DNA of 49,226 bases, from positions 1 through 49,226 of the forward strand of contig CAYMKA010000001.1 in assembly GCA_964390935.1 (NCBI GenBank), read 5' to 3'. A program made the translations under genes and the position numbers. Within the stretch, counting starts at the first letter, position 1; each line of letters begins with the position of its first letter. Below are positions 8,494-29,568 of this stretch, piece by piece. The stretch comes from an uncultured bacterium. Its GTDB lineage: Bacteria; Margulisbacteria; CAYMKA01. The notes below the pieces were generated by a model. That model saw only the letters and a list, made by a program, of their open reading frames with translations, searched no databases and was not told the origin of the DNA.

Positions 8494-8922
8494 ATGTTAG
8501 AAAAATTATCTAAAGAAATTACCGACGCAATGAAGGCCAAAGACTCTAAACGTCTTGATGTTCTTCGCATGATGAAATCAAAAATTATGACGGTAAACAC
8601 CAAAGGCGTAGACGAAAAACAATCTTTAAACATTTTAAAAACTTATGTCAAAAATTTAAAAGAAGCAGTCGAGTTAACCCAAAAAGCAGGTAAAACCGAT
8701 GAAGTGGCTCAACTGCAATATGAAATTGGAGTGGTCAGTGAATACTTGCCTGCCGAAGCAGATCCTGCAGCCATTGCGAAAGTGGTCGAAGCGGCCATTG
8801 CGAAAGTGAACCCTCAGGGCCCTCAGGATTTTGGAAAAATTATGAAAGAAGTCATGAGTGCAGGACTTAATGCCGACGGAAATGTGATTAAGCAGATAGT
8901 GAACGAAAAACTTAAAAAATAA
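8494..8922 (+). CDS. yqeY: GatB/YqeY domain-containing protein
   Basis: 142 aa. MLEKLSKEITDAMKAKDSKRLDVLRMMKSKI...VSEYLP...AIAKV....GPQDFGKIMKEVM is the typical YqeY pattern. Its 3' end overlaps the convergent outer-membrane gene by 11 bp. Confidence 0.85.
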   Translation: MLEKLSKEITDAMKAKDSKRLDVLRMMKSKIMTVNTKGVDEKQSLNILKTYVKNLKEAVELTQKAGKTDEVAQLQYEIGVVSEYLPAEADPAAIAKVVEAAIAKVNPQGPQDFGKIMKEVMSAGLNADGNVIKQIVNEKLKK

Positions 8923-10537
8923 AGTTAATCCCTAAATACCCAAACCAGTATCTGTAACCCAAGCTGTCTTCCCGATAATAAAGTGAACCGTCATATTGCG
9001 TATGTTGATGAACCCAACGACTTTTGAAGAAAAAAGTGCTCGAAGTGGCCTGGCCAATTTCTTCACGATAAGCATACCCTGGACTGACTTTAAAATTTTG
9101 AGAAACAGGAATTTCATACTCCACCGCAGCTTGATTAGCTTTTAATTTGCGCGGATTCCCAGGTTGATCAATACGCATAAAATAAGAAGAAGGTTGATCA
9201 ATTTGATAATCATTTGTTTCAAGGCTTATTTTTAACGGTTTAATAAAAGCTTCTCGCCAACCCAGTCTTGCGGTGCTCTGAACTGATTTATTTTGATCAT
9301 AATAATTTGCACTCTCATAATCATATTCCAATTCAACTTGGTTAAGGGGATACCAGGCCAAAACGGCATTGTTCCAATTAGAGCGGTTAATCTGTTTGTC
9401 GGGTTCAAATCGTGATCGCAAAATAATGGCAGCATTGTTAAAAAAAGACCAACTGAGCCCGCCTCCATAAATATAATTAATGCCTATGGCCTGATCACTA
9501 CGCAGGCCTGCATCAAATAACAATCGAAAAGAGTCAGTCAGCGGCAAACGATAAGTCAAAATGCTGGTTAAATTCACAGATCGCGGGGTTTGTCCTTGCT
9601 GAGCTTCAGAATAAAAACTCGAAAACCATTCTACACCCGGGCTTTTAGCTAGTTGTTCATATTGTTTTTGATTTTCCAGTTCTTTTAAATTCATTTCCCA
9701 ATCCTTTTTTCTGGCCGGCCAACGTTTTTTAAGCAAATTAAAATACACTTGCGCATTTTCATATTCTTTTAACCACAAGGTCACATTGGCCAACTGCTCT
9801 AACAAATTTAAATCCCCTGGATTAGTTTGATAAGCTTTTAAGAGGGCTTCCTTAGAATTTTGAAAATCATTTTTATTTAAATAAATAGCACTCATTTCTT
9901 TAGTAGCCGGGCCAAAATATGCACTATTCCGTCTTACCGTTTTTAAAACATCTAGCGCATCGTCATTTTTTTTCTGCCTGAGGTAAGAATAAGCTAAATC
10001 CATTTTCACATTATCCTGATCAGGCTTTACGAGCAGAATTTTTCTAAAAATATTTTGAGCTTTGTCTTCTTCCTTAGCATTTAAATAAATTTGAGCCAGT
10101 TCTGTCATGGCCGGCACATCCCTGGGATCAGACAAAAGCAAAGATTCTAATTCTGAGAGAGACATTTTTGATTTCTTTGACCACATCAGAATTCGAGCAT
10201 ATTGCAATTGATAATCTTTATTTTCAGGATCAATCGTTAAAAGTTCTTTTGAATATTTTTCAGCTAATTTCCAATTTTTTAATTTAACGTAAATATCCGT
10301 TAATTCTTGTTTAAAGACCTCAGCCTTGGGCAAAATTAAAATAAGTTGATTGTATTTTTCAATGGCTTCAGTCTCGCGATTGTTCTTTTTTGCTGAAACT
10401 GCTTCGCGGTATAAATCCTGAACTTCGGGATCTAAATCATCATAAGAAAAATCTTCTGCTATCAAAGGCTGGGCCAGCCACAAAACACCCAGCACAAGCA
10501 GACTAAAACAGAGACTAGTTTTTACGTTTAAGGGCAT
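8912..10537 (-). CDS. Outer-membrane polysaccharide exporter: N-terminal TPR repeats plus C-terminal beta-barrel (BcsC/PgaA-like, compact)
   Basis: Signal peptide (LLVLGVLWLAQPLIA), then ~290 aa of TPR-like repeats. The C-terminal ~250 aa shows alternating-hydrophobic beta-strand patterning and ends ...YLGINFIF (aromatic OMP terminus). It is the last gene of the EPS operon. Confidence 0.75.
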   Translation of the reverse strand: MPLNVKTSLCFSLLVLGVLWLAQPLIAEDFSYDDLDPEVQDLYREAVSAKKNNRETEAIEKYNQLILILPKAEVFKQELTDIYVKLKNWKLAEKYSKELLTIDPENKDYQLQYARILMWSKKSKMSLSELESLLLSDPRDVPAMTELAQIYLNAKEEDKAQNIFRKILLVKPDQDNVKMDLAYSYLRQKKNDDALDVLKTVRRNSAYFGPATKEMSAIYLNKNDFQNSKEALLKAYQTNPGDLNLLEQLANVTLWLKEYENAQVYFNLLKKRWPARKKDWEMNLKELENQKQYEQLAKSPGVEWFSSFYSEAQQGQTPRSVNLTSILTYRLPLTDSFRLLFDAGLRSDQAIGINYIYGGGLSWSFFNNAAIILRSRFEPDKQINRSNWNNAVLAWYPLNQVELEYDYESANYYDQNKSVQSTARLGWREAFIKPLKISLETNDYQIDQPSSYFMRIDQPGNPRKLKANQAAVEYEIPVSQNFKVSPGYAYREEIGQATSSTFFFKSRWVHQHTQYDGSLYYREDSLGYRYWFGYLGINFIF

Positions 10538-12608
10538 ATAAAACGCTCATAGCGATCACTGCGAAAATCGTAAAGACCACAAAGAGCACCAGTAAAATTT
10601 GAAGTTTAATTTGCAGACTGCGCTGACGATCGGTTTGAATTTGACTCTTATCGTAAGAAGCGATGGTATTGATTTTTCCTGATTCGTTAACCACCACCAC
10701 ATTGGCCTCCAAAATAGCCAGTTGGTTGCGATTAATAATCGTATCCAGTGCTTTGAGCATTAGCTCATCATTGGTTCCTGTCACCACGACAATCGTTTTT
10801 AAAAAGTTAAAGGGAGAAGGAATAAGTTGAACGGTGCCCATTTGATCACGAAAATCATAAGGCAAACCAATTTGGCTGGAATGAATAAAGGGCTTACTGT
10901 CATCTAATCGAAATGAAATCGGTAATTTAGTATTCATTTGCGAAAATAATTTTTGACGCTCTGCCAAACCTATCACAATCAAGTGATTCGTTTTTAAATC
11001 TTCTTTGGTAATCTGACTGGCTTTTTTAACACTGAACCAGTTTTCATTTTTAGGCATGAGCTGCCCCATGCTCATGCTTAAACGTTCTAAAGCAGTTAAA
11101 TCGGCTGCTGTAGGCTGATCAGGCATAACAAAGAGCGGCAAATTTACTTTTTTGCGAAGTAAGTACGGCCCTGGCAAATCACTTAAATAAAAAACATTTT
11201 TATCGCGGTGTTTGTAATCCAGCCAAGAATCGCCATGAATAATAAACCAGGCTTTGTCGTAGTCTCTGCGGCCGCAATCTAAATTAACTTGCTGTTCAGT
11301 ATCAAGATAATAACGCACGGCGACCTCCAGCAGTTGGCGATCACGCGCCTGCGGAGGAATTTTGACCTTAAAATTCATTTTACGGCCAGGCACTGTTTTT
11401 AATTTGGTGGTCCCGGCATAAATGCCATTAATAAAAACAGTGACTTGCGATTTGGTGGAATCAAGCAAGGGTGACAAGCTAAATTTAAAATTAATGGCGG
11501 CACCGTCAAGCAGTTCCCAGGCGGCGGGGACAGCAAAATAAAAAGTAGTCGTCCCATTAAAACTGCCTCGATTAATCACGTCTTCATAACCGGCTTCTTT
11601 AAATGACAATTGATTTGAAAAAAAGGCTAATAAATCGTAATTAATCACTTTTTTAAAAATCGGAACAAATTGAGCGGTTTGATCTTTAAGTTTAAACAAA
11701 AAGTCTGGATGAAATTGATTGGTCAGAGCATTGCGGGCAGTTTCGAGTTTGTCGCTTTTAATCTGTAAAACAATTCCGTTGGCGTCTATTTTGGGCTGCA
11801 CAAACTGATACTGCACCTGTCCTGCCTCTATATTAAAGGTGGGGCTCATTTGCAGCAGATGAAATTTTTTAGACCAGTCCTTAGGCAATTTTAAAACGGA
11901 TTGAATCATGCCCGGATAAATATCCTTGTCCCAGTGTCCTAATTGTCTGGAAAAATTAGCAGCCATTTCTAGTGTCTGAGAATCTAAATTTTGATAATAA
12001 AACATTAAATCTTTAGTCTTAAACTGATTCATGCGTACTAACGGCTCAGGAAAATAATCTAACTTGGCTTTAAAAGGCTGATAAAAGATCTCTAATTTAG
12101 AGGTTTTTTTAACAACGTACCAATTTGAAGGGCTGTCTAAATCTTTACATAAATCCTCATTAGCCTGGGCAAAAAATTCAACCCGCAGATAATTAGCTCC
12201 AGACTTAATGATTTCTCCTTTTATTGGCAAGGTCACCCGACCTTCACGGCCAAAGAATTGAGCCAGTGTTAATGTTTTTAAAGGCACTTCATTTAATACA
12301 AAAGTGAGATTAGATAAGTTTTTAAGTAGAGTGTCTGAAAAATAAAAATCAAAAGTTAAATTGGCATTTTGAATATTTTTTACTGACTTAGGAACATAAA
12401 AATAAAAAGAGTAAGCCCCGCGTAGTCCTTTGACTGGAATTTCCTGGTCAGGCGATAAAATAATAGTACTGGTTAAAAATTTAGAAATATCATTTGGCAC
12501 AGCTTGGATGGCACTACCTAAAAGAAGCGTAAAAATAAATATTCCGACACAAAATCTTTTTAACACCGAGAAATGATTATAGGAGCAAATAAAAAGAATC
12601 CATAACAA
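10515..12608 (-). CDS. BcsB-like periplasmic synthase subunit with a C-terminal TM anchor
   Basis: Two repeated modules fit the BcsB pattern (...ANLTFDFYFSDTLLKNLSNLTFVLNEVPLKTL... and ...AAINFKFSLSPLLDSTKSQVTVFINGIYAGTTKL...). There is a single C-terminal TM helix (LQILLVLFVVFTIFAVIAMSVLYAL). The gene sits directly downstream of the GT2 synthase. Confidence 0.8.
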   Translation of the reverse strand: MLWILFICSYNHFSVLKRFCVGIFIFTLLLGSAIQAVPNDISKFLTSTIILSPDQEIPVKGLRGAYSFYFYVPKSVKNIQNANLTFDFYFSDTLLKNLSNLTFVLNEVPLKTLTLAQFFGREGRVTLPIKGEIIKSGANYLRVEFFAQANEDLCKDLDSPSNWYVVKKTSKLEIFYQPFKAKLDYFPEPLVRMNQFKTKDLMFYYQNLDSQTLEMAANFSRQLGHWDKDIYPGMIQSVLKLPKDWSKKFHLLQMSPTFNIEAGQVQYQFVQPKIDANGIVLQIKSDKLETARNALTNQFHPDFLFKLKDQTAQFVPIFKKVINYDLLAFFSNQLSFKEAGYEDVINRGSFNGTTTFYFAVPAAWELLDGAAINFKFSLSPLLDSTKSQVTVFINGIYAGTTKLKTVPGRKMNFKVKIPPQARDRQLLEVAVRYYLDTEQQVNLDCGRRDYDKAWFIIHGDSWLDYKHRDKNVFYLSDLPGPYLLRKKVNLPLFVMPDQPTAADLTALERLSMSMGQLMPKNENWFSVKKASQITKEDLKTNHLIVIGLAERQKLFSQMNTKLPISFRLDDSKPFIHSSQIGLPYDFRDQMGTVQLIPSPFNFLKTIVVVTGTNDELMLKALDTIINRNQLAILEANVVVVNESGKINTIASYDKSQIQTDRQRSLQIKLQILLVLFVVFTIFAVIAMSVLYALKRKN

Positions 12609-12626
12609 ATTGCAACAATTTAAATA

Positions 12627-13889
12627 CTAGACGTTTGTTGTAGGTTTATTGTTAAAGCGAACGGTTTTGTCCCAATGAAATAAATTTCTTTTTTTCTTTG
12701 GTTCGAATAAAGTCATTAATCCCAAAACAAGCCAGGCCTGACAATAAGTAAAGTACATCAAAAAAACCGTCAGAATATTTTTAAAACTGAGCTCTTTTTC
12801 TTCAAAAGCCAGCGTCAATAAACTGACCTGAAAAAACATCATAAAAGTAGCAAACCAAATTAAAGTTACCGGCCCTTCGACCGTAATGCGTGCCCATTCC
12901 CACTGAAAAATGCCGCATAAAAAAATAAAATCAGAAACTAAAATTAAAAAAATAAGGCTGTAATAGGTTGAGAACATATAAAGCATGGTTGAAAAAAGCC
13001 TGGGATTGGTTAAACCCTTCCCTAAGTATTTGTTCACAATATAAAAATTGCCCTTCACCCAGCGGCGGCGCTGCTTAAACCATACTTTCCATTCTTGGGG
13101 TTCTTGCTCCCAGGTCACAGCCGTAGGACAAAACCAAATGCGATAACCTTTTTCAATTAATCTCAAACTTAGTTCCGTGTCTTCTGTAAGCGACTTTGAA
13201 TCCCAATCGCCCATTTCTTTTAAAATCGCTCTTTTAATCACAAAGTTAGTTCCGGACAAAAAAGCAATGCGGTGCAAAAACCATTTGCCGGCTTGATGAG
13301 TCCATTGATGGACGATAAATTCAATATTAATAAACCGAGTCAACAAATTGACTTCCTTATTAATAGTGCGGACTTTTCCGACCACCGCTGCAATTTTGGG
13401 GTCAGACATCGCCGCTGTCACTAAAATTTCAAGAGACTGAGGTTCAGGATTATTGTCTGCATCATAAATAGCGATTAACTCATGGCTGGCGTGTTTAAGA
13501 CCATAATTTAAATTGCTCGATTTGCCACGATGAGCGATTTCAGGAGGAATGTTTAACAGTTTGATTTGTTTATATTTTTTAGAAAACTCAGTCACAATTT
13601 CTGCAGTATTATCTTTGGAGTCATCGTTAATCACAAAAATTTCAAGCTTTTCAGGCGGATAATCTAAATGAACCATGCTTTGCAAAGTATCGCGGATCAC
13701 CACCCCTTCGTTATAAGCAGGGATAAAAATCGAAACTCCAGGAAATTGTTTGTTAGCTGTCAACAAATCAATGGTTTCTTCTTGGTTAATATCACGATAA
13801 AAAATGGCAACCAAAAATAATACTCCGTTATAAATAATCATTAACCAAATTGAAAAAAGCGCAATCAAAAAAAGAGTATTTAAAATCAT
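12627..13889 (-). CDS. Processive family-2 glycosyltransferase (PgaC/IcaA/NodC/BcsA-core-like polysaccharide synthase), no PilZ domain
   Basis: Carries the D,D,D,QxxRW motif set: IFIPAYNE, INDDSKDNT, IYDADN, TEDTELSLRL, QRRRWVKG. TM helices flank the GT-A domain. Start moved to the ATG at 13889, which forms an ATGA overlap with the upstream stop; the protein is then 420 aa. Confidence 0.88.
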   Translation of the reverse strand: MILNTLFLIALFSIWLMIIYNGVLFLVAIFYRDINQEETIDLLTANKQFPGVSIFIPAYNEGVVIRDTLQSMVHLDYPPEKLEIFVINDDSKDNTAEIVTEFSKKYKQIKLLNIPPEIAHRGKSSNLNYGLKHASHELIAIYDADNNPEPQSLEILVTAAMSDPKIAAVVGKVRTINKEVNLLTRFINIEFIVHQWTHQAGKWFLHRIAFLSGTNFVIKRAILKEMGDWDSKSLTEDTELSLRLIEKGYRIWFCPTAVTWEQEPQEWKVWFKQRRRWVKGNFYIVNKYLGKGLTNPRLFSTMLYMFSTYYSLIFLILVSDFIFLCGIFQWEWARITVEGPVTLIWFATFMMFFQVSLLTLAFEEKELSFKNILTVFLMYFTYCQAWLVLGLMTLFEPKKKRNLFHWDKTVRFNNKPTTNV

Positions 13890-15757
13890 AATGTTCTCAT
13901 TTTCTGCTGACGACGATGGCTGATGTATTTCAGAGCAAAAACAATAAAAAGTCCCATGACAAATAAAATATTCGTCACGAAAAAAACCCACATCATGATT
14001 CGAAGCACAGAATCAAACCAGCTCATTGATTGCTTTCCCAAAAAAGTATCTTTTAACCATGATCCTGTTGAAATCATTTGCACATTGTCTTGAGTCAGCT
14101 TCATGACAAAAATACCTTTTTGAGTCGCTGGGATTTCAAACAAAGTATGGGCCCGTGATGGTTCTTCAATAAAATCAATAATATTTTCATGACCGTCGGG
14201 GTTCACCACAAAAGCCTTCATTTTTTGATAATCGAGTTTCACATTTTGAAGCGGATTAATTTTAAAATGAAAAAATTGCCCGTTCTTTTCAGGGTCATGC
14301 ATATTCGGAAGTCCCGAATACAGCACCCAATGCGGAGATTTCACCTGGTTAGGCAAATCACGCATATCCAAAAAATCAAATCCCATTTTTTTAAGACCTT
14401 TGATCAGTTCTTCCAGTTTTTCGGGAGGCATCCAGGGATGAAAAAAGCCGACGGCAATGGCATCGCGAACGACTAACATTTTCTTAGCTTCTGCCAACAT
14501 TTGTTCGATGGTCAGCCCCTCTTCCTCACTGTAATAACCCAAATTTTCAGGAATCACAAAACGGCCATAACGGTCTTTAATAAGATAAGGAAAATTTTGT
14601 GAGGCTTTGTATGATTTATCGCTGATCTGTAATCTCTCAACAGCAGTTGAAAAATATTCACCTAAAATTCGATAACTTAACTGTGAGGCCGCATAATGAG
14701 GGGTTTCCCAGGCGAGAGGATAAATTTTGGATTGCATTGTTAATTCCAATGCATCTTCAATTTTTTTTCTAATTTGCTCTTCATTCATCCCAGCAAAGGC
14801 TTTGTCTTTTTGCACGTTCCAAAATTCAAAACCTTCTCCTGTGATATTTTGATTGGCGTGGTTATAACCATGCAAAATGGCTGTCCCGCCTACAGTTTGC
14901 AGATAGCGCAGCGCAGAAACAAAATAAGGCCGCTCTGCCATTGTGAAGAATTGCTTCTGATCCTGATAAACAGGAATAACTGCGAAAGCAAAAGGGACAT
15001 GATATTTTTTAAATGTTTTTCCCAAATTTCTTAACATTTCTGGTCTATATTTAGGATGAACATCTTCAATACGAATAAAAGCTTGTTTAGAAGCCGGGTG
15101 ATATTCTTCCAAAATATCATGTAATAAATCTGCAAAAATATAAGAAGAACTACTCATAAAAAGCGGTAAATCACTAATGTACCAAAATTTTTTTTGTTTC
15201 ACTGCAAAAGGCACTTGCTCATCATTTCTAAAATGGCTGCCAATCAGTTTAATTTTTTTACGGTCATAGTTTGTGATCATAAAAACATCTTCACCCAAGC
15301 GGTCATAAAGCTGGCTTTGATAATATAATTTTGAAAAACCAAATTCTTGAGGAGCTATTCTGAAACCAAATTTTTGAGGATAAGCATTGATTAGACTTTG
15401 TGCACCTGCAAAAACCCAGCACACTGTTTTTTTATCCATCACGCTCACAATATCGTCATTAAATAATAAATTTGGTTTTTCTTTTGCGTCAGCACCGACA
15501 TAAAAAATGACATCGTATAAATTGACCAGCCCTTTTCGATAATCTTTAAGCGCCAGGGTCGCTGTTTGCACATCAAAGTGAGAAAGTAAATTTTGAAAAG
15601 ATGCGGGCAAATCATAAAGAGCGCCGGCCGGATATTCTTGATCGTAGACCACCAATACTTTTTTAAGAGATTGATCACTCCATAAAGCTGCGGTCAGCAC
15701 ACACACACTGAGAGCACACCAGAGCCCCAGTTTCAGGTTTTTCAAAAAAATTTTCAT
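13886..15757 (-). CDS. DUF2334-type (polysaccharide deacetylase-like) periplasmic protein with a C-terminal TM anchor
   Basis: Signal peptide. The central region (FIRIEDVHPKYRP...VPFAFAVIPVY...ILHGYNHAN...GEGFEFW) resembles DUF2334 of the deacetylase superfamily. C-terminal TM helix (IMMWVFFVTNILFVMGLFIVFAL). An ATGA overlap links it to the upstream gene. Confidence 0.65.
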   Translation of the reverse strand: MKIFLKNLKLGLWCALSVCVLTAALWSDQSLKKVLVVYDQEYPAGALYDLPASFQNLLSHFDVQTATLALKDYRKGLVNLYDVIFYVGADAKEKPNLLFNDDIVSVMDKKTVCWVFAGAQSLINAYPQKFGFRIAPQEFGFSKLYYQSQLYDRLGEDVFMITNYDRKKIKLIGSHFRNDEQVPFAVKQKKFWYISDLPLFMSSSSYIFADLLHDILEEYHPASKQAFIRIEDVHPKYRPEMLRNLGKTFKKYHVPFAFAVIPVYQDQKQFFTMAERPYFVSALRYLQTVGGTAILHGYNHANQNITGEGFEFWNVQKDKAFAGMNEEQIRKKIEDALELTMQSKIYPLAWETPHYAASQLSYRILGEYFSTAVERLQISDKSYKASQNFPYLIKDRYGRFVIPENLGYYSEEEGLTIEQMLAEAKKMLVVRDAIAVGFFHPWMPPEKLEELIKGLKKMGFDFLDMRDLPNQVKSPHWVLYSGLPNMHDPEKNGQFFHFKINPLQNVKLDYQKMKAFVVNPDGHENIIDFIEEPSRAHTLFEIPATQKGIFVMKLTQDNVQMISTGSWLKDTFLGKQSMSWFDSVLRIMMWVFFVTNILFVMGLFIVFALKYISHRRQQKMRTL

Positions 15758-16605
15758 GATTTTTTGACGACTAATTGCTGTTTACCAGCTTGGGTTCTTA
15801 AAGTCAGTGCCCGCTTCGCATCCTGAGGATAAGTAGCCATGCCAATTTTAATTTTGATCCCCAATTTAATATTGGTTTTACCGTATGAAAAATAACTGTT
15901 TAATAATTGATGAGCCATTAGATAGGCTTTACTTTTTATATCTTCTTCTGCCTGCCCTTCACACAAAACTTCAAAGTGTGTATCTCCTTTACGAGTTAAG
16001 GTATCTCCATCCTCTACCAAATCCATAATAGTTTTAAAAATTTTTTCACCAGTTAAAAATAAAGCTTTTCCGTTAAACACTCTTTGCACATCAGCATAGT
16101 CATCCAAACTTATATTTAAAACACTGAAATGACTTTTACGGCGCGTTGCTCTTGCCACCGCTTCAGTGAGAGCAGTTTCAAATTGTTTATCACTCACTAC
16201 TTTGACTTTACGTTCTCTGGCCATAGCACTAATTTCTTCAGGATGCTTTTTTTGAAGGCGATAATAAAAAATGAGGCCGTCTCCGATCATGCCAAAGAAA
16301 ACCCCTTCTATCAGATATAAAAACAGCCACAGGCCTTGATTAAATTGAAAATCAAAAAAGCCTGAGCTGGTAATTAATTGAAATAAAAATGTCCCAATAA
16401 AAATAAAAATTGCTATGAGCGATGAAAATATTCCTAAAATTGATCCCAACAATATGGCCACCAAAGAAACCATCAGGGCTAATAAAATATATAAAAAATA
16501 TTGAAGATCAAATTGAAAATAATATAAATAAAAATATCCAGCGCAAAAACCCACGGCTAAGAGAATTAATAAACTAATCCGAATTTGGTTAGCATAATTT
16601 GGCAT
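15754..16605 (-). CDS. Membrane protein (about 4 TM helices) with a cytoplasmic degenerate GGDEF-like domain
   Basis: The hydrophobic N-terminal ~110 aa is followed by a GGDEF-fold pattern (HFSVLNISLDDYADV...GEKIFKTIMDLVEDGDTLTRKGDTHFEVLCEG...IKIGMATYPQDA). The signature is GDTHF instead of GG(D/E)EF, and the I-site position reads EDGD rather than RxxD. Confidence 0.6.
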   Translation of the reverse strand: MPNYANQIRISLLILLAVGFCAGYFYLYYFQFDLQYFLYILLALMVSLVAILLGSILGIFSSLIAIFIFIGTFLFQLITSSGFFDFQFNQGLWLFLYLIEGVFFGMIGDGLIFYYRLQKKHPEEISAMARERKVKVVSDKQFETALTEAVARATRRKSHFSVLNISLDDYADVQRVFNGKALFLTGEKIFKTIMDLVEDGDTLTRKGDTHFEVLCEGQAEEDIKSKAYLMAHQLLNSYFSYGKTNIKLGIKIKIGMATYPQDAKRALTLRTQAGKQQLVVKKS

Positions 16606-16636
16606 AGACCGTCATGATCTACCCACCTTCAATGTT

Positions 16637-17773: not shown

Positions 17774-17793
17774 TTCCTCTATATTATAGAGGC

Positions 17794-18303
17794 ATGAGAT
17801 CAAAGATTGTTTTAGCCCTTTTAGTTTTAGGAATTACTTTATATTTATCCACTCTAGAGCCGGGCTATTCCGATGAACTGGTAACCACCGCGTCCTCTGT
17901 AGTCTCGTTTCAAAATGTCGACTGGTCAAAATTTTTAGGCGGGCGATTTTCTTTTTTTATCAACCAAATTGGAATGCCTGATCAAATTTATCCCAAGCGT
18001 TACAGCGCTGATGACCGGGAAGATGATGTCGTCATGTATTATCGCGGTGCTGGAGTCGATATGCGGGTTTATGTGTGGGACAACAACATTTATCGATTTT
18101 ATTTTTCAAAAGAACACCGCTTTAATATTTTTCAAGGGGTACGAACCAACATGAACAAAGAACAAATTGAATCAGTGCTGGGACCAGTTAATAAAATTAC
18201 CGAAAAGAATTTATATTTATGGAAATCAGGTCAGCAAAAAATTATTGTTACTTTTGACGACAAAAACATTGCTAAAGAAATTATGTTATCGCTAGAAAGA
18301 TAA
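17794..18303 (+). CDS. Small secreted hypothetical protein, divergent from the EPS operon
   Basis: ATG at 17794 after agagg. Signal-like N-terminus (MRSKIVLALLVLGITLYLS). No family recognised. Confidence 0.55.
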   Translation: MRSKIVLALLVLGITLYLSTLEPGYSDELVTTASSVVSFQNVDWSKFLGGRFSFFINQIGMPDQIYPKRYSADDREDDVVMYYRGAGVDMRVYVWDNNIYRFYFSKEHRFNIFQGVRTNMNKEQIESVLGPVNKITEKNLYLWKSGQQKIIVTFDDKNIAKEIMLSLER

Positions 18304-18310
18304 AAATACA

Positions 18311-18381
18311 GGCCCCTCCCGTCCCCTAAAGGGGATGGTCAGTTTTAAAAACAAATTCCCCCTTTAGGGGGTTAGGGGGCC
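18311..18381. repeat. GC-rich imperfect palindromic element (REP/MITE-like), copy A
   Basis: ggcccctcccgtcccctaaagggga...ttttaaaaac...ccccctttagggggttagggggcc. The left and right halves are reverse complements, each containing a CCCCTAAAGGGG-type core. It lies between convergent gene ends. Confidence 0.7.
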
Positions 18382-20621: not shown

Positions 20622-22692
20622 ATAAAACGCTCATAGCGATCACTGCGAAAATCGTAAAGACCACAAAGAGCACCAGTAAAATTTGAAGTTTAATTTGCAG
20701 ACTGCGCTGACGATCGGTTTGAATTTGACTCTTATCGTAAGAAGCGATGGTATTGATTTTTCCTGATTCGTTAACCACCACCACATTGGCCTCCAAAATA
20801 GCCAGTTGGTTGCGATTAATAATCGTATCCAGTGCTTTGAGCATTAGCTCATCATTGGTTCCTGTCACCACGACAATCGTTTTTAAAAAGTTAAAGGGAG
20901 AAGGAATAAGTTGAACGGTGCCCATTTGATCACGAAAATCATAAGGCAAACCAATTTGGCTGGAATGAATAAAGGGCTTACTGTCATCTAATCGAAATGA
21001 AATCGGTAATTTAGTATTCATTTGCGAAAATAATTTTTGACGCTCTGCCAAACCTATCACAATCAAGTGATTCGTTTTTAAATCTTCTTTGGTAATCTGA
21101 CTGGCTTTTTTAACACTGAACCAGTTTTCATTTTTAGGCATGAGCTGCCCCATGCTCATGCTTAAACGTTCTAAAGCAGTTAAATCGGCTGCTGTAGGCT
21201 GATCAGGCATAACAAAGAGCGGCAAATTTACTTTTTTGCGAAGTAAGTACGGCCCTGGCAAATCACTTAAATAAAAAACATTTTTATCGCGGTGTTTGTA
21301 ATCCAGCCAAGAATCGCCATGAATAATAAACCAGGCTTTGTCGTAGTCTCTGCGGCCGCAATCTAAATTAACTTGCTGTTCAGTATCAAGATAATAACGC
21401 ACGGCGACCTCCAGCAGTTGGCGATCACGCGCCTGCGGAGGAATTTTGACCTTAAAATTCATTTTACGGCCAGGCACTGTTTTTAATTTGGTGGTCCCGG
21501 CATAAATGCCATTAATAAAAACAGTGACTTGCGATTTGGTGGAATCAAGCAAGGGTGACAAGCTAAATTTAAAATTAATGGCGGCACCGTCAAGCAGTTC
21601 CCAGGCGGCGGGGACAGCAAAATAAAAAGTAGTCGTCCCATTAAAACTGCCTCGATTAATCACGTCTTCATAACCGGCTTCTTTAAATGACAATTGATTT
21701 GAAAAAAAGGCTAATAAATCGTAATTAATCACTTTTTTAAAAATCGGAACAAATTGAGCGGTTTGATCTTTAAGTTTAAACAAAAAGTCTGGATGAAATT
21801 GATTGGTCAGAGCATTGCGGGCAGTTTCGAGTTTGTCGCTTTTAATCTGTAAAACAATTCCGTTGGCGTCTATTTTGGGCTGCACAAACTGATACTGCAC
21901 CTGTCCTGCCTCTATATTAAAGGTGGGGCTCATTTGCAGCAGATGAAATTTTTTAGACCAGTCCTTAGGCAATTTTAAAACGGATTGAATCATGCCCGGA
22001 TAAATATCCTTGTCCCAGTGTCCTAATTGTCTGGAAAAATTAGCAGCCATTTCTAGTGTCTGAGAATCTAAATTTTGATAATAAAACATTAAATCTTTAG
22101 TCTTAAACTGATTCATGCGTACTAACGGCTCAGGAAAATAATCTAACTTGGCTTTAAAAGGCTGATAAAAGATCTCTAATTTAGAGGTTTTTTTAACAAC
22201 GTACCAATTTGAAGGGCTGTCTAAATCTTTACATAAATCCTCATTAGCCTGGGCAAAAAATTCAACCCGCAGATAATTAGCTCCAGACTTAATGATTTCT
22301 CCTTTTATTGGCAAGGTCACCCGACCTTCACGGCCAAAGAATTGAGCCAGTGTTAATGTTTTTAAAGGCACTTCATTTAATACAAAAGTGAGATTAGATA
22401 AGTTTTTAAGTAGAGTGTCTGAAAAATAAAAATCAAAAGTTAAATTGGCATTTTGAATATTTTTTACTGACTTAGGAACATAAAAATAAAAAGAGTAAGC
22501 CCCGCGTAGTCCTTTGACTGGAATTTCCTGGTCAGGCGATAAAATAATAGTACTGGTTAAAAATTTAGAAATATCATTTGGCACAGCTTGGATGGCACTA
22601 CCTAAAAGAAGCGTAAAAATAAATATTCCGACACAAAATCTTTTTAACACCGAGAAATGATTATAGGAGCAAATAAAAAGAATCCATAACAA
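20599..22692 (-). CDS. BcsB-like periplasmic synthase subunit (copy 2)
   Basis: Translation identical to 10515..12608. Confidence 0.8.
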   Translation of the reverse strand: MLWILFICSYNHFSVLKRFCVGIFIFTLLLGSAIQAVPNDISKFLTSTIILSPDQEIPVKGLRGAYSFYFYVPKSVKNIQNANLTFDFYFSDTLLKNLSNLTFVLNEVPLKTLTLAQFFGREGRVTLPIKGEIIKSGANYLRVEFFAQANEDLCKDLDSPSNWYVVKKTSKLEIFYQPFKAKLDYFPEPLVRMNQFKTKDLMFYYQNLDSQTLEMAANFSRQLGHWDKDIYPGMIQSVLKLPKDWSKKFHLLQMSPTFNIEAGQVQYQFVQPKIDANGIVLQIKSDKLETARNALTNQFHPDFLFKLKDQTAQFVPIFKKVINYDLLAFFSNQLSFKEAGYEDVINRGSFNGTTTFYFAVPAAWELLDGAAINFKFSLSPLLDSTKSQVTVFINGIYAGTTKLKTVPGRKMNFKVKIPPQARDRQLLEVAVRYYLDTEQQVNLDCGRRDYDKAWFIIHGDSWLDYKHRDKNVFYLSDLPGPYLLRKKVNLPLFVMPDQPTAADLTALERLSMSMGQLMPKNENWFSVKKASQITKEDLKTNHLIVIGLAERQKLFSQMNTKLPISFRLDDSKPFIHSSQIGLPYDFRDQMGTVQLIPSPFNFLKTIVVVTGTNDELMLKALDTIINRNQLAILEANVVVVNESGKINTIASYDKSQIQTDRQRSLQIKLQILLVLFVVFTIFAVIAMSVLYALKRKN

Positions 22693-22710
22693 ATTGCAAC
22701 AATTTAAATA

Positions 22711-23973
22711 CTAGACGTTTGTTGTAGGTTTATTGTTAAAGCGAACGGTTTTGTCCCAATGAAATAAATTTCTTTTTTTCTTTGGTTCGAATAAAGTCAT
22801 TAATCCCAAAACAAGCCAGGCCTGACAATAAGTAAAGTACATCAAAAAAACCGTCAGAATATTTTTAAAACTGAGCTCTTTTTCTTCAAAAGCCAGCGTC
22901 AATAAACTGACCTGAAAAAACATCATAAAAGTAGCAAACCAAATTAAAGTTACCGGCCCTTCGACCGTAATGCGTGCCCATTCCCACTGAAAAATGCCGC
23001 ATAAAAAAATAAAATCAGAAACTAAAATTAAAAAAATAAGGCTGTAATAGGTTGAGAACATATAAAGCATGGTTGAAAAAAGCCTGGGATTGGTTAAACC
23101 CTTCCCTAAGTATTTGTTCACAATATAAAAATTGCCCTTCACCCAGCGGCGGCGCTGCTTAAACCATACTTTCCATTCTTGGGGTTCTTGCTCCCAGGTC
23201 ACAGCCGTAGGACAAAACCAAATGCGATAACCTTTTTCAATTAATCTCAAACTTAGTTCCGTGTCTTCTGTAAGCGACTTTGAATCCCAATCGCCCATTT
23301 CTTTTAAAATCGCTCTTTTAATCACAAAGTTAGTTCCGGACAAAAAAGCAATGCGGTGCAAAAACCATTTGCCGGCTTGATGAGTCCATTGATGGACGAT
23401 AAATTCAATATTAATAAACCGAGTCAACAAATTGACTTCCTTATTAATAGTGCGGACTTTTCCGACCACCGCTGCAATTTTGGGGTCAGACATCGCCGCT
23501 GTCACTAAAATTTCAAGAGACTGAGGTTCAGGATTATTGTCTGCATCATAAATAGCGATTAACTCATGGCTGGCGTGTTTAAGACCATAATTTAAATTGC
23601 TCGATTTGCCACGATGAGCGATTTCAGGAGGAATGTTTAACAGTTTGATTTGTTTATATTTTTTAGAAAACTCAGTCACAATTTCTGCAGTATTATCTTT
23701 GGAGTCATCGTTAATCACAAAAATTTCAAGCTTTTCAGGCGGATAATCTAAATGAACCATGCTTTGCAAAGTATCGCGGATCACCACCCCTTCGTTATAA
23801 GCAGGGATAAAAATCGAAACTCCAGGAAATTGTTTGTTAGCTGTCAACAAATCAATGGTTTCTTCTTGGTTAATATCACGATAAAAAATGGCAACCAAAA
23901 ATAATACTCCGTTATAAATAATCATTAACCAAATTGAAAAAAGCGCAATCAAAAAAAGAGTATTTAAAATCAT
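22711..23973 (-). CDS. Processive GT2 polysaccharide synthase without PilZ (copy 2)
   Basis: Translation identical to 12627..13889, with the same ATGA start/stop overlap. Confidence 0.88.
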   Translation of the reverse strand: MILNTLFLIALFSIWLMIIYNGVLFLVAIFYRDINQEETIDLLTANKQFPGVSIFIPAYNEGVVIRDTLQSMVHLDYPPEKLEIFVINDDSKDNTAEIVTEFSKKYKQIKLLNIPPEIAHRGKSSNLNYGLKHASHELIAIYDADNNPEPQSLEILVTAAMSDPKIAAVVGKVRTINKEVNLLTRFINIEFIVHQWTHQAGKWFLHRIAFLSGTNFVIKRAILKEMGDWDSKSLTEDTELSLRLIEKGYRIWFCPTAVTWEQEPQEWKVWFKQRRRWVKGNFYIVNKYLGKGLTNPRLFSTMLYMFSTYYSLIFLILVSDFIFLCGIFQWEWARITVEGPVTLIWFATFMMFFQVSLLTLAFEEKELSFKNILTVFLMYFTYCQAWLVLGLMTLFEPKKKRNLFHWDKTVRFNNKPTTNV

Positions 23974-25841
23974 AATGTTCTCATTTTCTGCTGACGACGA
24001 TGGCTGATGTATTTCAGAGCAAAAACAATAAAAAGTCCCATGACAAATAAAATATTCGTCACGAAAAAAACCCACATCATGATTCGAAGCACAGAATCAA
24101 ACCAGCTCATTGATTGCTTTCCCAAAAAAGTATCTTTTAACCATGATCCTGTTGAAATCATTTGCACATTGTCTTGAGTCAGCTTCATGACAAAAATACC
24201 TTTTTGAGTCGCTGGGATTTCAAACAAAGTATGGGCCCGTGATGGTTCTTCAATAAAATCAATAATATTTTCATGACCGTCGGGGTTCACCACAAAAGCC
24301 TTCATTTTTTGATAATCGAGTTTCACATTTTGAAGCGGATTAATTTTAAAATGAAAAAATTGCCCGTTCTTTTCAGGGTCATGCATATTCGGAAGTCCCG
24401 AATACAGCACCCAATGCGGAGATTTCACCTGGTTAGGCAAATCACGCATATCCAAAAAATCAAATCCCATTTTTTTAAGACCTTTGATCAGTTCTTCCAG
24501 TTTTTCGGGAGGCATCCAGGGATGAAAAAAGCCGACGGCAATGGCATCGCGAACGACTAACATTTTCTTAGCTTCTGCCAACATTTGTTCGATGGTCAGC
24601 CCCTCTTCCTCACTGTAATAACCCAAATTTTCAGGAATCACAAAACGGCCATAACGGTCTTTAATAAGATAAGGAAAATTTTGTGAGGCTTTGTATGATT
24701 TATCGCTGATCTGTAATCTCTCAACAGCAGTTGAAAAATATTCACCTAAAATTCGATAACTTAACTGTGAGGCCGCATAATGAGGGGTTTCCCAGGCGAG
24801 AGGATAAATTTTGGATTGCATTGTTAATTCCAATGCATCTTCAATTTTTTTTCTAATTTGCTCTTCATTCATCCCAGCAAAGGCTTTGTCTTTTTGCACG
24901 TTCCAAAATTCAAAACCTTCTCCTGTGATATTTTGATTGGCGTGGTTATAACCATGCAAAATGGCTGTCCCGCCTACAGTTTGCAGATAGCGCAGCGCAG
25001 AAACAAAATAAGGCCGCTCTGCCATTGTGAAGAATTGCTTCTGATCCTGATAAACAGGAATAACTGCGAAAGCAAAAGGGACATGATATTTTTTAAATGT
25101 TTTTCCCAAATTTCTTAACATTTCTGGTCTATATTTAGGATGAACATCTTCAATACGAATAAAAGCTTGTTTAGAAGCCGGGTGATATTCTTCCAAAATA
25201 TCATGTAATAAATCTGCAAAAATATAAGAAGAACTACTCATAAAAAGCGGTAAATCACTAATGTACCAAAATTTTTTTTGTTTCACTGCAAAAGGCACTT
25301 GCTCATCATTTCTAAAATGGCTGCCAATCAGTTTAATTTTTTTACGGTCATAGTTTGTGATCATAAAAACATCTTCACCCAAGCGGTCATAAAGCTGGCT
25401 TTGATAATATAATTTTGAAAAACCAAATTCTTGAGGAGCTATTCTGAAACCAAATTTTTGAGGATAAGCATTGATTAGACTTTGTGCACCTGCAAAAACC
25501 CAGCACACTGTTTTTTTATCCATCACGCTCACAATATCGTCATTAAATAATAAATTTGGTTTTTCTTTTGCGTCAGCACCGACATAAAAAATGACATCGT
25601 ATAAATTGACCAGCCCTTTTCGATAATCTTTAAGCGCCAGGGTCGCTGTTTGCACATCAAAGTGAGAAAGTAAATTTTGAAAAGATGCGGGCAAATCATA
25701 AAGAGCGCCGGCCGGATATTCTTGATCGTAGACCACCAATACTTTTTTAAGAGATTGATCACTCCATAAAGCTGCGGTCAGCACACACACACTGAGAGCA
25801 CACCAGAGCCCCAGTTTCAGGTTTTTCAAAAAAATTTTCAT
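23970..25841 (-). CDS. DUF2334-type deacetylase-like protein (copy 2)
   Basis: Translation identical to 13886..15757. Confidence 0.65.
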   Translation of the reverse strand: MKIFLKNLKLGLWCALSVCVLTAALWSDQSLKKVLVVYDQEYPAGALYDLPASFQNLLSHFDVQTATLALKDYRKGLVNLYDVIFYVGADAKEKPNLLFNDDIVSVMDKKTVCWVFAGAQSLINAYPQKFGFRIAPQEFGFSKLYYQSQLYDRLGEDVFMITNYDRKKIKLIGSHFRNDEQVPFAVKQKKFWYISDLPLFMSSSSYIFADLLHDILEEYHPASKQAFIRIEDVHPKYRPEMLRNLGKTFKKYHVPFAFAVIPVYQDQKQFFTMAERPYFVSALRYLQTVGGTAILHGYNHANQNITGEGFEFWNVQKDKAFAGMNEEQIRKKIEDALELTMQSKIYPLAWETPHYAASQLSYRILGEYFSTAVERLQISDKSYKASQNFPYLIKDRYGRFVIPENLGYYSEEEGLTIEQMLAEAKKMLVVRDAIAVGFFHPWMPPEKLEELIKGLKKMGFDFLDMRDLPNQVKSPHWVLYSGLPNMHDPEKNGQFFHFKINPLQNVKLDYQKMKAFVVNPDGHENIIDFIEEPSRAHTLFEIPATQKGIFVMKLTQDNVQMISTGSWLKDTFLGKQSMSWFDSVLRIMMWVFFVTNILFVMGLFIVFALKYISHRRQQKMRTL

Positions 25842-26689
25842 GATTTTTTGACGACTAATTGCTGTTTACCAGCTTGGGTTCTTAAAGTCAGTGCCCGCTT
25901 CGCATCCTGAGGATAAGTAGCCATGCCAATTTTAATTTTGATCCCCAATTTAATATTGGTTTTACCGTATGAAAAATAACTGTTTAATAATTGATGAGCC
26001 ATTAGATAGGCTTTACTTTTTATATCTTCTTCTGCCTGCCCTTCACACAAAACTTCAAAGTGTGTATCTCCTTTACGAGTTAAGGTATCTCCATCCTCTA
26101 CCAAATCCATAATAGTTTTAAAAATTTTTTCACCAGTTAAAAATAAAGCTTTTCCGTTAAACACTCTTTGCACATCAGCATAGTCATCCAAACTTATATT
26201 TAAAACACTGAAATGACTTTTACGGCGCGTTGCTCTTGCCACCGCTTCAGTGAGAGCAGTTTCAAATTGTTTATCACTCACTACTTTGACTTTACGTTCT
26301 CTGGCCATAGCACTAATTTCTTCAGGATGCTTTTTTTGAAGGCGATAATAAAAAATGAGGCCGTCTCCGATCATGCCAAAGAAAACCCCTTCTATCAGAT
26401 ATAAAAACAGCCACAGGCCTTGATTAAATTGAAAATCAAAAAAGCCTGAGCTGGTAATTAATTGAAATAAAAATGTCCCAATAAAAATAAAAATTGCTAT
26501 GAGCGATGAAAATATTCCTAAAATTGATCCCAACAATATGGCCACCAAAGAAACCATCAGGGCTAATAAAATATATAAAAAATATTGAAGATCAAATTGA
26601 AAATAATATAAATAAAAATATCCAGCGCAAAAACCCACGGCTAAGAGAATTAATAAACTAATCCGAATTTGGTTAGCATAATTTGGCAT
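25838..26689 (-). CDS. Membrane-anchored degenerate GGDEF-like protein (copy 2)
   Basis: Translation identical to 15754..16605. Confidence 0.6.
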   Translation of the reverse strand: MPNYANQIRISLLILLAVGFCAGYFYLYYFQFDLQYFLYILLALMVSLVAILLGSILGIFSSLIAIFIFIGTFLFQLITSSGFFDFQFNQGLWLFLYLIEGVFFGMIGDGLIFYYRLQKKHPEEISAMARERKVKVVSDKQFETALTEAVARATRRKSHFSVLNISLDDYADVQRVFNGKALFLTGEKIFKTIMDLVEDGDTLTRKGDTHFEVLCEGQAEEDIKSKAYLMAHQLLNSYFSYGKTNIKLGIKIKIGMATYPQDAKRALTLRTQAGKQQLVVKKS

Positions 26690-26720
26690 AGACCGTCATG
26701 ATCTACCCACCTTCAATGTT

Positions 26721-27857
26721 CTAATGCATCGATTCTTGTACAAAGGTCTGGTAGTGACGCAAGGCGGTCAAAATCAAGATATGATCAAACGCTTCAAAAG
26801 GAGCCTGCCCAAAAGAACCATTGTTGTTTTGTAAAAGCAAAAGTTTTTTAGCTAAGGGTTGAGCAAACTCCATATCATTTTGAAAAACAGCCAGACTTAA
26901 CATTAATCCATAAACGGCAGGACTTTCATAATCAACCAAAGCTTTCAAAGTGACGGGATGATAACGACCGTAGACTTTGCCTTTCTTTAAGTATTCATTT
27001 TTGAGCCATAAATATAATTTAGAGGGTTTTCCATTCACCTGACTTTCTACCTGAGCACAAATCAATTGATTAATTAAATTCATATCTTGTAAGCCATACT
27101 TTGATTTATCAATAAGATATTTATCAAAATAAAATCCGGTGGGAGTTTTTCCCCCATTCAATAGTTTTTGAGATCGGTATAAAACCGCCTGCCAGTCTTT
27201 ATCAAATTGAGACAAATAAGCCATGGCTGGTAAATCGAGATAGGACAAATCAACTTTAAATGAAATATCAGGCTGCGGAGCTTCACAATAAGACTCGACA
27301 AAATAGTTATCTCTTAAATTAATTTTTTTCATACGCTGGGCCATCACAGCGCTTAATGCCAAGTATTTTTTTTGTTTCCAAATTTTTCCTGCCTGGGCCA
27401 AGGCAAACGCAATACGCAAATCATCAAGAGAGGCATTGCAAGAACTGGGAGTCGATTGATCAATACGCCAATACACCCAATCTTCTGGACTCAAAAAATA
27501 CCGTTGCAAATTTTTAACCTGTTTATCAAAAATGCTTTGGCGCTGCGTTTCCACCAAATACACCATCCACAAACCTAGCGTTTCTGACAAATATTCATTT
27601 TCTTGAGAATTTTTGAGCGGGTCAAATTGTTTAATCACCCCCCGGCGGTAAGTGAGATGATTGAGCACAAATTCAACCCCTTTATCTTGGGCTAGTGACA
27701 AAGCCTGCGTTTGCGTATCCGGCTGAACAGGAGGCTTATAAAAAAGTCTCAGACAAAGAAAAACAACAATAAAAAACAACATTAATCCTATTGCTACTTT
27801 TATTTCTAAACGATTGCGATATAGCCACTTTTGAAAAGGACTTTTAATTCGTGACAT
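26721..27857 (-). CDS. GH8-like glycoside hydrolase (copy 2)
   Basis: Translation identical to 16637..17773. Confidence 0.65.
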   Translation of the reverse strand: MSRIKSPFQKWLYRNRLEIKVAIGLMLFFIVVFLCLRLFYKPPVQPDTQTQALSLAQDKGVEFVLNHLTYRRGVIKQFDPLKNSQENEYLSETLGLWMVYLVETQRQSIFDKQVKNLQRYFLSPEDWVYWRIDQSTPSSCNASLDDLRIAFALAQAGKIWKQKKYLALSAVMAQRMKKINLRDNYFVESYCEAPQPDISFKVDLSYLDLPAMAYLSQFDKDWQAVLYRSQKLLNGGKTPTGFYFDKYLIDKSKYGLQDMNLINQLICAQVESQVNGKPSKLYLWLKNEYLKKGKVYGRYHPVTLKALVDYESPAVYGLMLSLAVFQNDMEFAQPLAKKLLLLQNNNGSFGQAPFEAFDHILILTALRHYQTFVQESMH

Positions 27858-27877
27858 TTCCTCTATATTATAGAGGC

Positions 27878-28387
27878 ATGAGATCAAAGATTGTTTTAGC
27901 CCTTTTAGTTTTAGGAATTACTTTATATTTATCCACTCTAGAGCCGGGCTATTCCGATGAACTGGTAACCACCGCGTCCTCTGTAGTCTCGTTTCAAAAT
28001 GTCGACTGGTCAAAATTTTTAGGCGGGCGATTTTCTTTTTTTATCAACCAAATTGGAATGCCTGATCAAATTTATCCCAAGCGTTACAGCGCTGATGACC
28101 GGGAAGATGATGTCGTCATGTATTATCGCGGTGCTGGAGTCGATATGCGGGTTTATGTGTGGGACAACAACATTTATCGATTTTATTTTTCAAAAGAACA
28201 CCGCTTTAATATTTTTCAAGGGGTACGAACCAACATGAACAAAGAACAAATTGAATCAGTGCTGGGACCAGTTAATAAAATTACCGAAAAGAATTTATAT
28301 TTATGGAAATCAGGTCAGCAAAAAATTATTGTTACTTTTGACGACAAAAACATTGCTAAAGAAATTATGTTATCGCTAGAAAGATAA
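27878..28387 (+). CDS. Small secreted hypothetical protein (copy 2)
   Basis: Translation identical to 17794..18303. Confidence 0.55.
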   Translation: MRSKIVLALLVLGITLYLSTLEPGYSDELVTTASSVVSFQNVDWSKFLGGRFSFFINQIGMPDQIYPKRYSADDREDDVVMYYRGAGVDMRVYVWDNNIYRFYFSKEHRFNIFQGVRTNMNKEQIESVLGPVNKITEKNLYLWKSGQQKIIVTFDDKNIAKEIMLSLER

Positions 28388-28394
28388 AAATACA

Positions 28395-28465
28395 GGCCCC
28401 TCCCGTCCCCTAAAGGGGATGGTCAGTTTTAAAAACAAATTCCCCCTTTAGGGGGTTAGGGGGCC
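28395..28465. repeat. GC-rich imperfect palindromic element, copy B (duplicate of copy A)
   Basis: Identical to 18311..18381. It lies between the convergent 27878..28387 and 28465..29568 genes. Confidence 0.7.
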
Positions 28466-29568
28466 TACGCTACTAACTTCTCTAACCCTCGCTGTGCCAA
28501 TAAAAAATTAGGTTTTGCTTTAACGGCTTCTTCATAACATTCCTTGGCTTTCTCTTTCAAAGCTTCTTCAAAATAACAATCGCCTAAATTCACCCAGGCT
28601 AACGCAAATTTAGGATCAAGTTTAATCGCCCGGCGATAGCTGGCCTTAGCATCACCAAAACGTTTCAAACAAAAATAAGTGGTACCCAGCATATTTTGAA
28701 TTTCAGCATCACCTTCCGTCTGCAAAGGAAATAGAATTTTAAGTGCATCCATGAAACGTCCATAATGCAGCGCCAGTCTGCCCACTTCTTTAACGATCGC
28801 TAAATTTTTAATCAGAGGTAAATCAGGTCTTAATCGAAATTGATAACCGCAATCTTTAAAACCAGGTTTCATCGGATACTGGCGACACAATTCAGGCCGG
28901 TCTTCATAAATTCCACAAGTACTTTGACCAATCACATGCTTACATTTAAAAACGCCTTGCCCTCGTGCATCTTGGCCTTGAAATTGCCATTGCAAAAACA
29001 TCGGTTCCACTTGCTGTGCCTGAGCTAACTGTTCAGGTGAATTAAGAACCACTCCTTTAAATTGCAATTGCACACTGTGACAACACATGCCAGTTTGTTT
29101 ACAGCCGCCACTGCGCTCCCAGACACTAGTGATAATTTTCTCTTTTAAAATATTTTGGCTGGGATCAAGATCAAAGGCTTTGACATAAAATTCAATGCCC
29201 TGTTCCACTGATTCCAAGGCCTGCAAGACATCACCAATTCCCTCATAAGCCGGGGCATAATCGGGTTTCACTTCTAAAGATTTTTTAAACTGGGCGAAGG
29301 CCTCTTCAAAACGACTTTGTTTTAAAAATAAAATGCCACGCAGGTGAAAAGTATCTTCTTCTTCAGTGAGTTCAATTTTTTCAGCTTCGGCGTAACGCTC
29401 TAAATTAAGTAAACAGCTAAACTGTAACTTCTTTTTTAATTTTTCATCAGGAAGATGAGCGGCAAGGGCCAGGGCGTCAGTATAGTTTTTACGGCCAATC
29501 AGTTCTGAAATTTCTCGTAATTGTGTGATCAAAAAGCCCGCCCCCTGCCATAGTATAATCCATGCCAT
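28465..29568 (-). CDS. TPR-repeat protein with an embedded YkgJ-family (CxxCxxCC-type) cysteine-cluster domain
   Basis: TPR-like repeats at both ends (e.g. AKASYRRAIKLDPKFALAWVNLGDCYFEEALKEKAKECYEEAVKAKP). The central region reads GGCKQTGMCCHSVQL...CKHVIGQSTCGIYEDRPELCRQYP, typical of the YkgJ zinc/iron-chelating domain. Confidence 0.7.
   Translation of the reverse strand: MAWIILWQGAGFLITQLREISELIGRKNYTDALALAAHLPDEKLKKKLQFSCLLNLERYAEAEKIELTEEEDTFHLRGILFLKQSRFEEAFAQFKKSLEVKPDYAPAYEGIGDVLQALESVEQGIEFYVKAFDLDPSQNILKEKIITSVWERSGGCKQTGMCCHSVQLQFKGVVLNSPEQLAQAQQVEPMFLQWQFQGQDARGQGVFKCKHVIGQSTCGIYEDRPELCRQYPMKPGFKDCGYQFRLRPDLPLIKNLAIVKEVGRLALHYGRFMDALKILFPLQTEGDAEIQNMLGTTYFCLKRFGDAKASYRRAIKLDPKFALAWVNLGDCYFEEALKEKAKECYEEAVKAKPNFLLAQRGLEKLVA

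Follow-up and report, generated by a model that had tools for sequence, protein, structure and literature searches.

The window analysed here, a contig of 49,226 bp from an uncultured bacterium (GenBank CAYMKA010000001.1, assembly GCA_964390935.1), carries two adjacent head-to-tail copies of a 10,084-bp segment that includes a complete operon for an exopolysaccharide (EPS) system related to YdaJKLMN of Bacillus subtilis. Our verdict is that the ydaJKLMN-like EPS operon has undergone a genuine tandem duplication, which is segregating and belongs to the known class of duplications with homology-free joins, and the most probable form by a good distance is a real chromosomal copy-number variant in the natural population of this bacterium. 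In bacteria, such duplications are generally considered common yet transient; nearly all work on them has been done under laboratory selection and assemblers tend to collapse them, so that, to our knowledge, few cases have been documented in wild, uncultured populations.

The repeat unit, its breakpoints and its junction

Direct comparison of positions 8557–18640 with 18641–28724 revealed two directly oriented segments of 10,084 bp each with 0 mismatches, and at an offset of 10,084 this is the sole run of identity of 15 bases or more, with not one base extra at either end; the window is free of N. An exact repeat of 10 kb excludes chance. The left breakpoint, 8557, is the first base of codon 22 of yqeY (start at 8494), whilst the right breakpoint, 28724/28725, falls inside codon 282 (28725–28723) of a gene running from 29568 to 28465 and encoding a 367-residue TPR/CxxCxxCC protein. 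The letters at the three boundaries (aaacgtctt/GATGTTC at the left, ccgtctgca/GATGTTC at the junction and ccgtctgca/AAGGAAA at the right) describe a single homology-free join of base 28724 to base 8557 in direct orientation: the number of bases shared at the join is 0, and local alignment of the parental breakpoints with 60 bp to either side gave a score of 7, where randomly paired window segments average 7.6, and thus no microhomology. Pfam analysis of the unit and the adjoining genes identified no insertion sequence (IS), transposase or integrase, and the flanks contain no long repeats. An earlier note made from the sequence alone had already described an apparently perfect tandem duplication with paired open reading frames (ORFs) of 541, 697, 454, 623, 283, 388 and 178 residues, breakpoints in yqeY codon 22 and TPR codon 282, a join without shared bases and the absence of IS, transposase, integrase and flanking repeats: we recovered each of these features, with all ORFs found in both copies and the breakpoint positions confirmed by the ORF coordinates.

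No gene is lost or disrupted by the rearrangement: yqeY and the TPR gene both remain whole at the outer edges of the repeat. What lies at 18640/18641 are two gene fragments, both truncated at the 5' end and facing away from the join, and as these remnants are promoter-less, 5'-truncated and pointing apart a fusion protein is not expected; in the junction contigs described below the TPR remnant is annotated as TPR fragments of 75 to 85 residues.

Several known routes to such a structure were considered and rejected. A crossover within the CGTCT pentamer shared by both parental breakpoints does not fit, as the junction retains the right-parent "gca" after the pentamer and the exchange hence lay outside of it. 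Unequal crossing-over mediated by IS, rrn or repetitive extragenic palindromic (REP) sequences is ruled out by the absence of such repeats, a tandem-inversion duplication by the direct orientation of both copies, and a prophage or integrative element by the absence of the corresponding genes: neither Pfam nor NCBIfam detected an integrase, recombinase or replication domain in the unit, the ends of which lie inside ORFs and share no repeat.

Recurrence of the junction and the single-copy state

Contigs from the same locus were found through exact-protein look-ups in public assemblies generated with MEGAHIT, SPAdes and Logan. The junction is spanned at 99.9–100% identity in 7 other sample accessions representing all three assemblers (Table 1), with contigs that reach as far as 3.4 kb from the join in one direction and ~5 kb in the opposite one. 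An exact look-up of the 117-residue yqeY remnant listed six matches, five of which cross the junction, with the sixth being an uninformative contig of 527 bp (L042). Recovery of an identical homology-free join by three assemblers from different read sets excludes a one-off assembly artefact for practical purposes.

The ends of contigs tell the same story, as they fall exactly at the breakpoints or k bases inside, which is what a repeat node of the assembly graph would produce: two contigs (L007 and L008) terminate at 8557, contigs of the right flank start at 28670 (L046; SPAdes, k=55) and at 28584 (L051; MEGAHIT, k=141), in each case exactly k before the breakpoint, one Logan contig (L004, SRR6837566) has exactly the length of the 10,084-bp unit, and two MEGAHIT contigs (ERZ27282941 and ERZ27286469) are closed loops of 10,225 bp (10,084 + 141), one of which begins at the arbitrary internal position 11521. 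The left natural boundary at yqeY is crossed by contigs L006 and L014–L020. Together with the junction in the 7 other accessions, the contig ends at the breakpoints largely exclude the assembly artefact that the earlier note had offered as its alternative.

In JGI metagenome contigs, an exact 46-mer of the junction gave 0 matches and a protein-based scan two distant matches only, so that the junction evidence is limited to ENA and Logan assemblies. Exact-product look-ups of the 697-residue BcsB and 355-residue ParA ORFs returned none, probably due to other start codons or variants having been called, and a literature search for the run, assembly and JGI accessions found no paper.

The ancestral arrangement was found in three relatives, all of which lack the junction. 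One contig of 13,195 bp (L001, ERZ27282978) exhibits the order ParA-yqeY-unit-TPR-DivIC-S1 with one copy of the unit: it matches the window from 30518 down to 18641 at 100%, covering the unit and 1.8 kb of the right flank, and then passes directly into the left flank. One copy is also present in a strain of 98.9% identity (L011, JGI 3300028898) and in a fully syntenic 107-kb contig of a related species (L059, JGI 3300015615), whose DUF2334 protein is 76% identical to that of the window. The single copy in all three indicates that the duplication is derived, specific to a strain lineage and polymorphic among samples.

Two further observations concern these assemblies. The left flank of the 13,195-bp contig differs from the window by 9 single-nucleotide polymorphisms in two tight clusters, 7265–7300 and 8018–8093, which suggests a recombination patch or a switch of strain consensus beside the left breakpoint. 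Contigs from ERZ3756520 (SPAdes) and ERZ27282971 (MEGAHIT) end at the same positions, 7107 and 34112, and both break near 17105–17198: either these are re-assemblies of the same reads, or the shared ends mark more graph branch points caused by strain variation.

Table 1. Features of the duplicated locus and contigs crossing the junction; positions refer to the 49,226-bp window.
Feature	Position	Strand	Basis or remark
Copy 1 of the 10,084-bp unit	8557–18640		0 mismatches to 18641–28724; Logan contig L004 is exactly this segment
Copy 2 of the 10,084-bp unit	18641–28724		0 mismatches to copy 1
Novel junction 18640/18641	18611–18670		ccttccgtctgca joined to gatgttcttcgc; 3' part of TPR gene (-) joined to yqeY from codon 22 (+)
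Intact yqeY, 142 aa	8494–8922	+	Pfam YqeY, 98 bits; holds left parental breakpoint
Truncated yqeY remnant, 117-aa ORF from internal ATG	18653–19006	+	at junction; ORF call
TPR/CxxCxxCC C-terminal remnant, 85 codons and stop	18381–18640	-	identical to 28465–28724; without start codon or promoter
Intact TPR/CxxCxxCC (YkgJ-type) gene, 367 aa	28465–29568	-	Pfam TPR_1 and CxxCxxCC; right parental breakpoint in codon 282
EPS operon copy 1, six genes	8912–17803	-	Pfam and NCBIfam
EPS operon copy 2, same six genes	18996–27887	-	identity with copy 1
GH8 hydrolase	16637–17803	-	Pfam 36.8, gathering score 24
Membrane protein, degenerate GGDEF	15754–16605	-	Pfam 32.2, gathering score 23.8
DUF2334 protein	13886–15757	-	Pfam 161, gathering score 26
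GT2 synthase, closest to PgaC or cellulose synthase	12627–13991	-	Pfam 132, gathering score 27
BcsB-like protein	10515–12608	-	Pfam 174, gathering score 21
TPR and outer-membrane porin, C-terminal half barrel-like	8912–10537	-	Pfam; faint PgaA-like hits
Divergent small gene, 169–178 aa	17767–18303 (copy 2: 27851–28387)	+	weak BamE-like hit
GC-rich hairpin	18310–18382 (copy 2: 28394–28466)		-41.1 kcal/mol, z = -3.4; between convergent small gene and TPR gene
Contig L003/L038, ERZ27282941	11521–21745		crosses junction, 100%
Contig L002/L037, ERZ27286469	18500–28724		crosses junction
Contig L010/L039, ERZ27268150	17339–21470		crosses junction
Contig L040, ERZ17987696, SPAdes NODE_19960	15242–19255		crosses junction, 100%
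Contig L041, ERZ27283032	15258–19242		crosses junction
Contig L009, Logan SRR6837574	18343–23629		crosses junction
Contig L005, Logan SRR6837582			crosses junction, 30 nt beyond join

Copy number, origin and competing explanations

The only sample with comparable unit and flank depths is ERZ3756520, for which the SPAdes coverage is 7.15 over the unit, 4.80 over the right flank and 4.18 over the left flank, giving ratios of 1.49 (right), 1.71 (left) and ~1.53 against the length-weighted flank mean. The earlier note had proposed a depth of ~2x as a check: the unit does lie above its flanks, but with a ratio of 1.5–1.7 falls short of 2, and this ~1.5x excess suggests a population in which one-copy genomes are mixed with genomes holding two or more copies. 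The junction contig from ERZ17987696 has a coverage of 7.25, and no flank contig was found in the same sample. The further claim that the EPS dosage is doubled holds in so far as each copy contains the whole operon and, ahead of the first gene, 837 bp or more of upstream sequence, and thus keeps its own upstream region as had been stated; the doubling itself does not follow from a depth of ~1.5x. Nor does it follow that the event was very recent: if the deposited contig is a de Bruijn graph path of flank-unit-junction-unit-flank, the same edge is printed twice, so that zero divergence is of little information, and even real tandem copies are kept alike by gene conversion and unequal exchange. 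The junction recurs in many samples that belong to several accession series, which indicates instead that the variant has persisted or spread. Two copies are the minimum that explains the junction, and are a lower bound if the contig derives from short reads.

A number of points weigh against a chromosomal tandem duplication as the explanation of these data. The depth ratio stems from a single sample of low coverage and does not reach 2; many accessions are near-consecutive and may derive from few studies or from re-assembled runs, so that "independent" refers to separate runs and assemblers but need not imply separate sites; and the flank-unit-unit-flank layout is shown by one sequence, the deposited contig of 49,226 bp, for which both the two copies and their identity follow from the method if the contig is a short-read graph traversal. 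To these must be added the two MEGAHIT closed loops of exactly unit + k, including the one that starts at 11521, which are what a free circle would also produce.

The alternative that survives best is itself compatible with a chromosomal duplication: some cells or samples may hold three or more copies, with the deposited contig understating their number. Graph traversal prints the minimum copy number, tandem duplications expand by unequal crossing-over, and the unit is complete and self-closing in both samples with loops (ERZ27282941 and ERZ27286469), whilst their flanks were assembled only as pieces of 2.6–3.2 kb, as if the loop were much deeper. Such fragmented flanks fit a deeper unit but are not proof of it, as isolation of the loop can also stem from low flank coverage, and the only ratio measured is ~1.5x; we regard this higher-order amplification as rather unlikely.

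A second alternative combines one chromosomal copy with a free 10,084-bp circle, either a pop-out product or a self-replicating episome, in which case the tandem layout would arise from the assembler threading a loop. This arrangement and a tandem duplication have the same assembly graph, the closed loops are readily accommodated and a ratio of ~1.5x is compatible. The content of the unit argues otherwise, since it comprises polysaccharide genes and one small gene only, with no gene for replication, partition, an integrase or a recombinase, and both of its ends lie inside ORFs without an att-like repeat or homology; a non-replicating form could not stay at ~0.5 copies per genome across many samples, and release by recombination between tandem copies presupposes the duplication. 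We consequently judge the circle to be improbable.

The weakest alternative, an artefact of assembly or curation such as an untrimmed circular end overlap, a chimeric read or an assembler error, can point to the perfect identity of the copies, to a join without microhomology at arbitrary intragenic positions, which is how artificial joins look, and to the window being the whole contig of a metagenome-assembled genome (MAG), yet it is very improbable given that MEGAHIT, SPAdes and Logan returned the same junction beyond a single assembly, that contigs break exactly at the predicted graph nodes and that the unit shows excess depth. Repeat mis-assembly in metagenomes, through loop traversal or untrimmed circular overlaps, does likewise yield identical copies and closed loops of unit + k; here, however, junction k-mers in many read sets and the excess depth place the repeat in the DNA, and only the exact copy number and differences between copies may depend on the assembler.

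For a chromosomal tandem duplication, the initial event would have joined base 28724 to base 8557 between two sister chromosomes or nascent strands, by template switching at a stalled fork, by end-joining or by an illegitimate exchange of topoisomerase type. The illegitimate-recombination origin proposed in the earlier note is borne out in the form of a genuine head-to-tail duplication with a homology-free join, whereas strict replication slippage needs a repeat to slip on and none is present. Once formed, two perfect 10-kb repeats would be substrates for RecA-dependent unequal crossing-over, by which copies could be gained or one copy removed scarlessly to restore the ancestral sequence, possibly with the release of non-replicating 10-kb circles. 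Such gain and loss would explain both the coexistence of single-copy and junction contigs of the same strain and the ~1.5x depth, and the dosage of the polysaccharide machinery would be expected to rise in proportion to copy number. That many samples share the junction means that it arose once and then persisted, whether by clonal spread, by selection for more polymer or by both.

Duplications with 0–1 bp of junction homology form a described class, including in populations of Pseudomonas fluorescens SBW25 (bioRxiv 10.64898/2026.05.22.727201). With this short-junction, RecA-independent class from Salmonella, E. coli and SBW25 the present case shares a block repeated head to tail around one new junction, a join with 0 bp of homology, the lack of flanking IS or rrn, the absence of gene loss, coexistence with a single-copy form and, in one low-coverage sample, excess depth over the unit. 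It differs in stemming from wild metagenomes of an uncultured lineage and not from laboratory selection, in the recurrence of the same junction across many samples and in its cargo, which is an EPS operon and not a resistance or metabolic gene.

Tentatively, and as a possibility on which we would place limited weight, the variant may represent a selected, reversible copy-number polymorphism in a wild Margulisbacteria-like population, with a repeat, created by one homology-free event, that expands and collapses through unequal crossing-over to give sub-populations carrying one, two or more doses of the EPS operon. If so, it would constitute a natural "dosage switch" for matrix production, with persistence reflecting a benefit that exceeds the instability of the tandem repeat. 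The main value of the locus is that it provides a ready-made, read-level marker for a natural copy-number variant: the junction sequence is exact and visible in several public read sets, so that the frequency of the duplicated form can be tracked across samples without new sequencing, and counts of junction against flank reads would test whether certain conditions favour a larger amount of polysaccharide machinery. Annotation should record a real copy-number variant of uncertain copy number, not two independent operons and not an error that can be trimmed.

The duplicated operon and its surroundings

The gene order GH8-GGDEF-DUF2334-GT2-BcsB of the cargo is that of ydaJKLMN in B. subtilis (PMC13274460), and the pss system of L. 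monocytogenes has these five domain types in identical order. What sets the duplicated operon apart from both is an additional gene for a TPR and beta-barrel porin (faint PgaA-like hits), suggestive of export through an outer membrane, and a host that is Margulisbacteria-like and not a Firmicute. On the basis of its predicted domains, the cargo is a distant variant of the ydaJKLMN/pss-type synthase-dependent EPS system with an added porin. No NCBIfam hit came near its equivalog cut-off, with PgaC at 158 against 422 bits, BcsB at 90 against 750 bits and BcsZ at 37.5 against 299 bits. Members of the DUF2334 cluster carry the name "YdaL" in JGI. By eye, the translation of the GGDEF protein exhibits GDTHF in place of the expected GG(D/E)EF and no clear RxxD five residues upstream. 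The corresponding protein of this operon type is catalytically degenerate and activates synthesis on binding c-di-GMP. The divergent small gene is kept in relatives as a gene of 169 to 172 residues. The operon (8912–17803 in the window, 7967–16875 in the related-species contig L059) is apparently the diderm counterpart of a system for which characterised examples come from Firmicutes only.

Just outside the duplication, at 7377–8444 (+), lies a gene for a ParA/MinD-type ATPase (BcsQ hit, 38 bits) fused to a C-terminal glycogen-binding CBM48/AMPK1_CBM domain. Its position is kept in the related species (L059 17311–18393), and its product may be a localisation factor for the polysaccharide machinery. 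The remaining surroundings are those of an ordinary chromosome, with rpsB, a DsbA-like gene, ribBA, ribE, accC and sulfite reductase. The window contains two proteins of the zinc/iron-chelating CxxCxxCC (YkgJ) type, at 40172–40846 (+) and 28465–29568 (-), the latter being the TPR fusion.

Concerning the host, the best named relatives of its RpsB are Candidatus Margulisbacteria, Margulisiibacteriota and Termititenax at 58–66% identity, and the nearest RpsB outside its own close cluster (94–97%) is only ~66% identical: this gives a phylum-level hint of a Margulisbacteria-like MAG. RibBA is too conserved to place the lineage. Among the GTDB genomes scanned there was no species-level representative of the lineage, and a query of the GTDB species representatives with the 541-residue porin returned only distant TPR matches of 23–30% identity.

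Between the small gene and the TPR gene, each copy of the unit contains an inverted repeat (aggcccctcccgtcccctaaagggg...cccccttagggggttagggggcct) that is predicted to form a GC-rich hairpin, and this region yields terminator-like hits on both strands, so that it looks like a bidirectional terminator. The strain of 98.9% identity (L011) lacks ~77 bp at this site. At least 8 Logan contigs end inside the hairpin, at 28425–28427 or the copy-1 equivalent (runs SRR28520272, SRR28520274, SRR28520277, SRR28520279, SRR28520283, SRR28520286 and SRR6837574), and a Logan contig from SRR28520289 ends ~20 bp off, at 28406. The hairpin may be a terminator polymorphic for insertion or deletion, or a small palindromic element.

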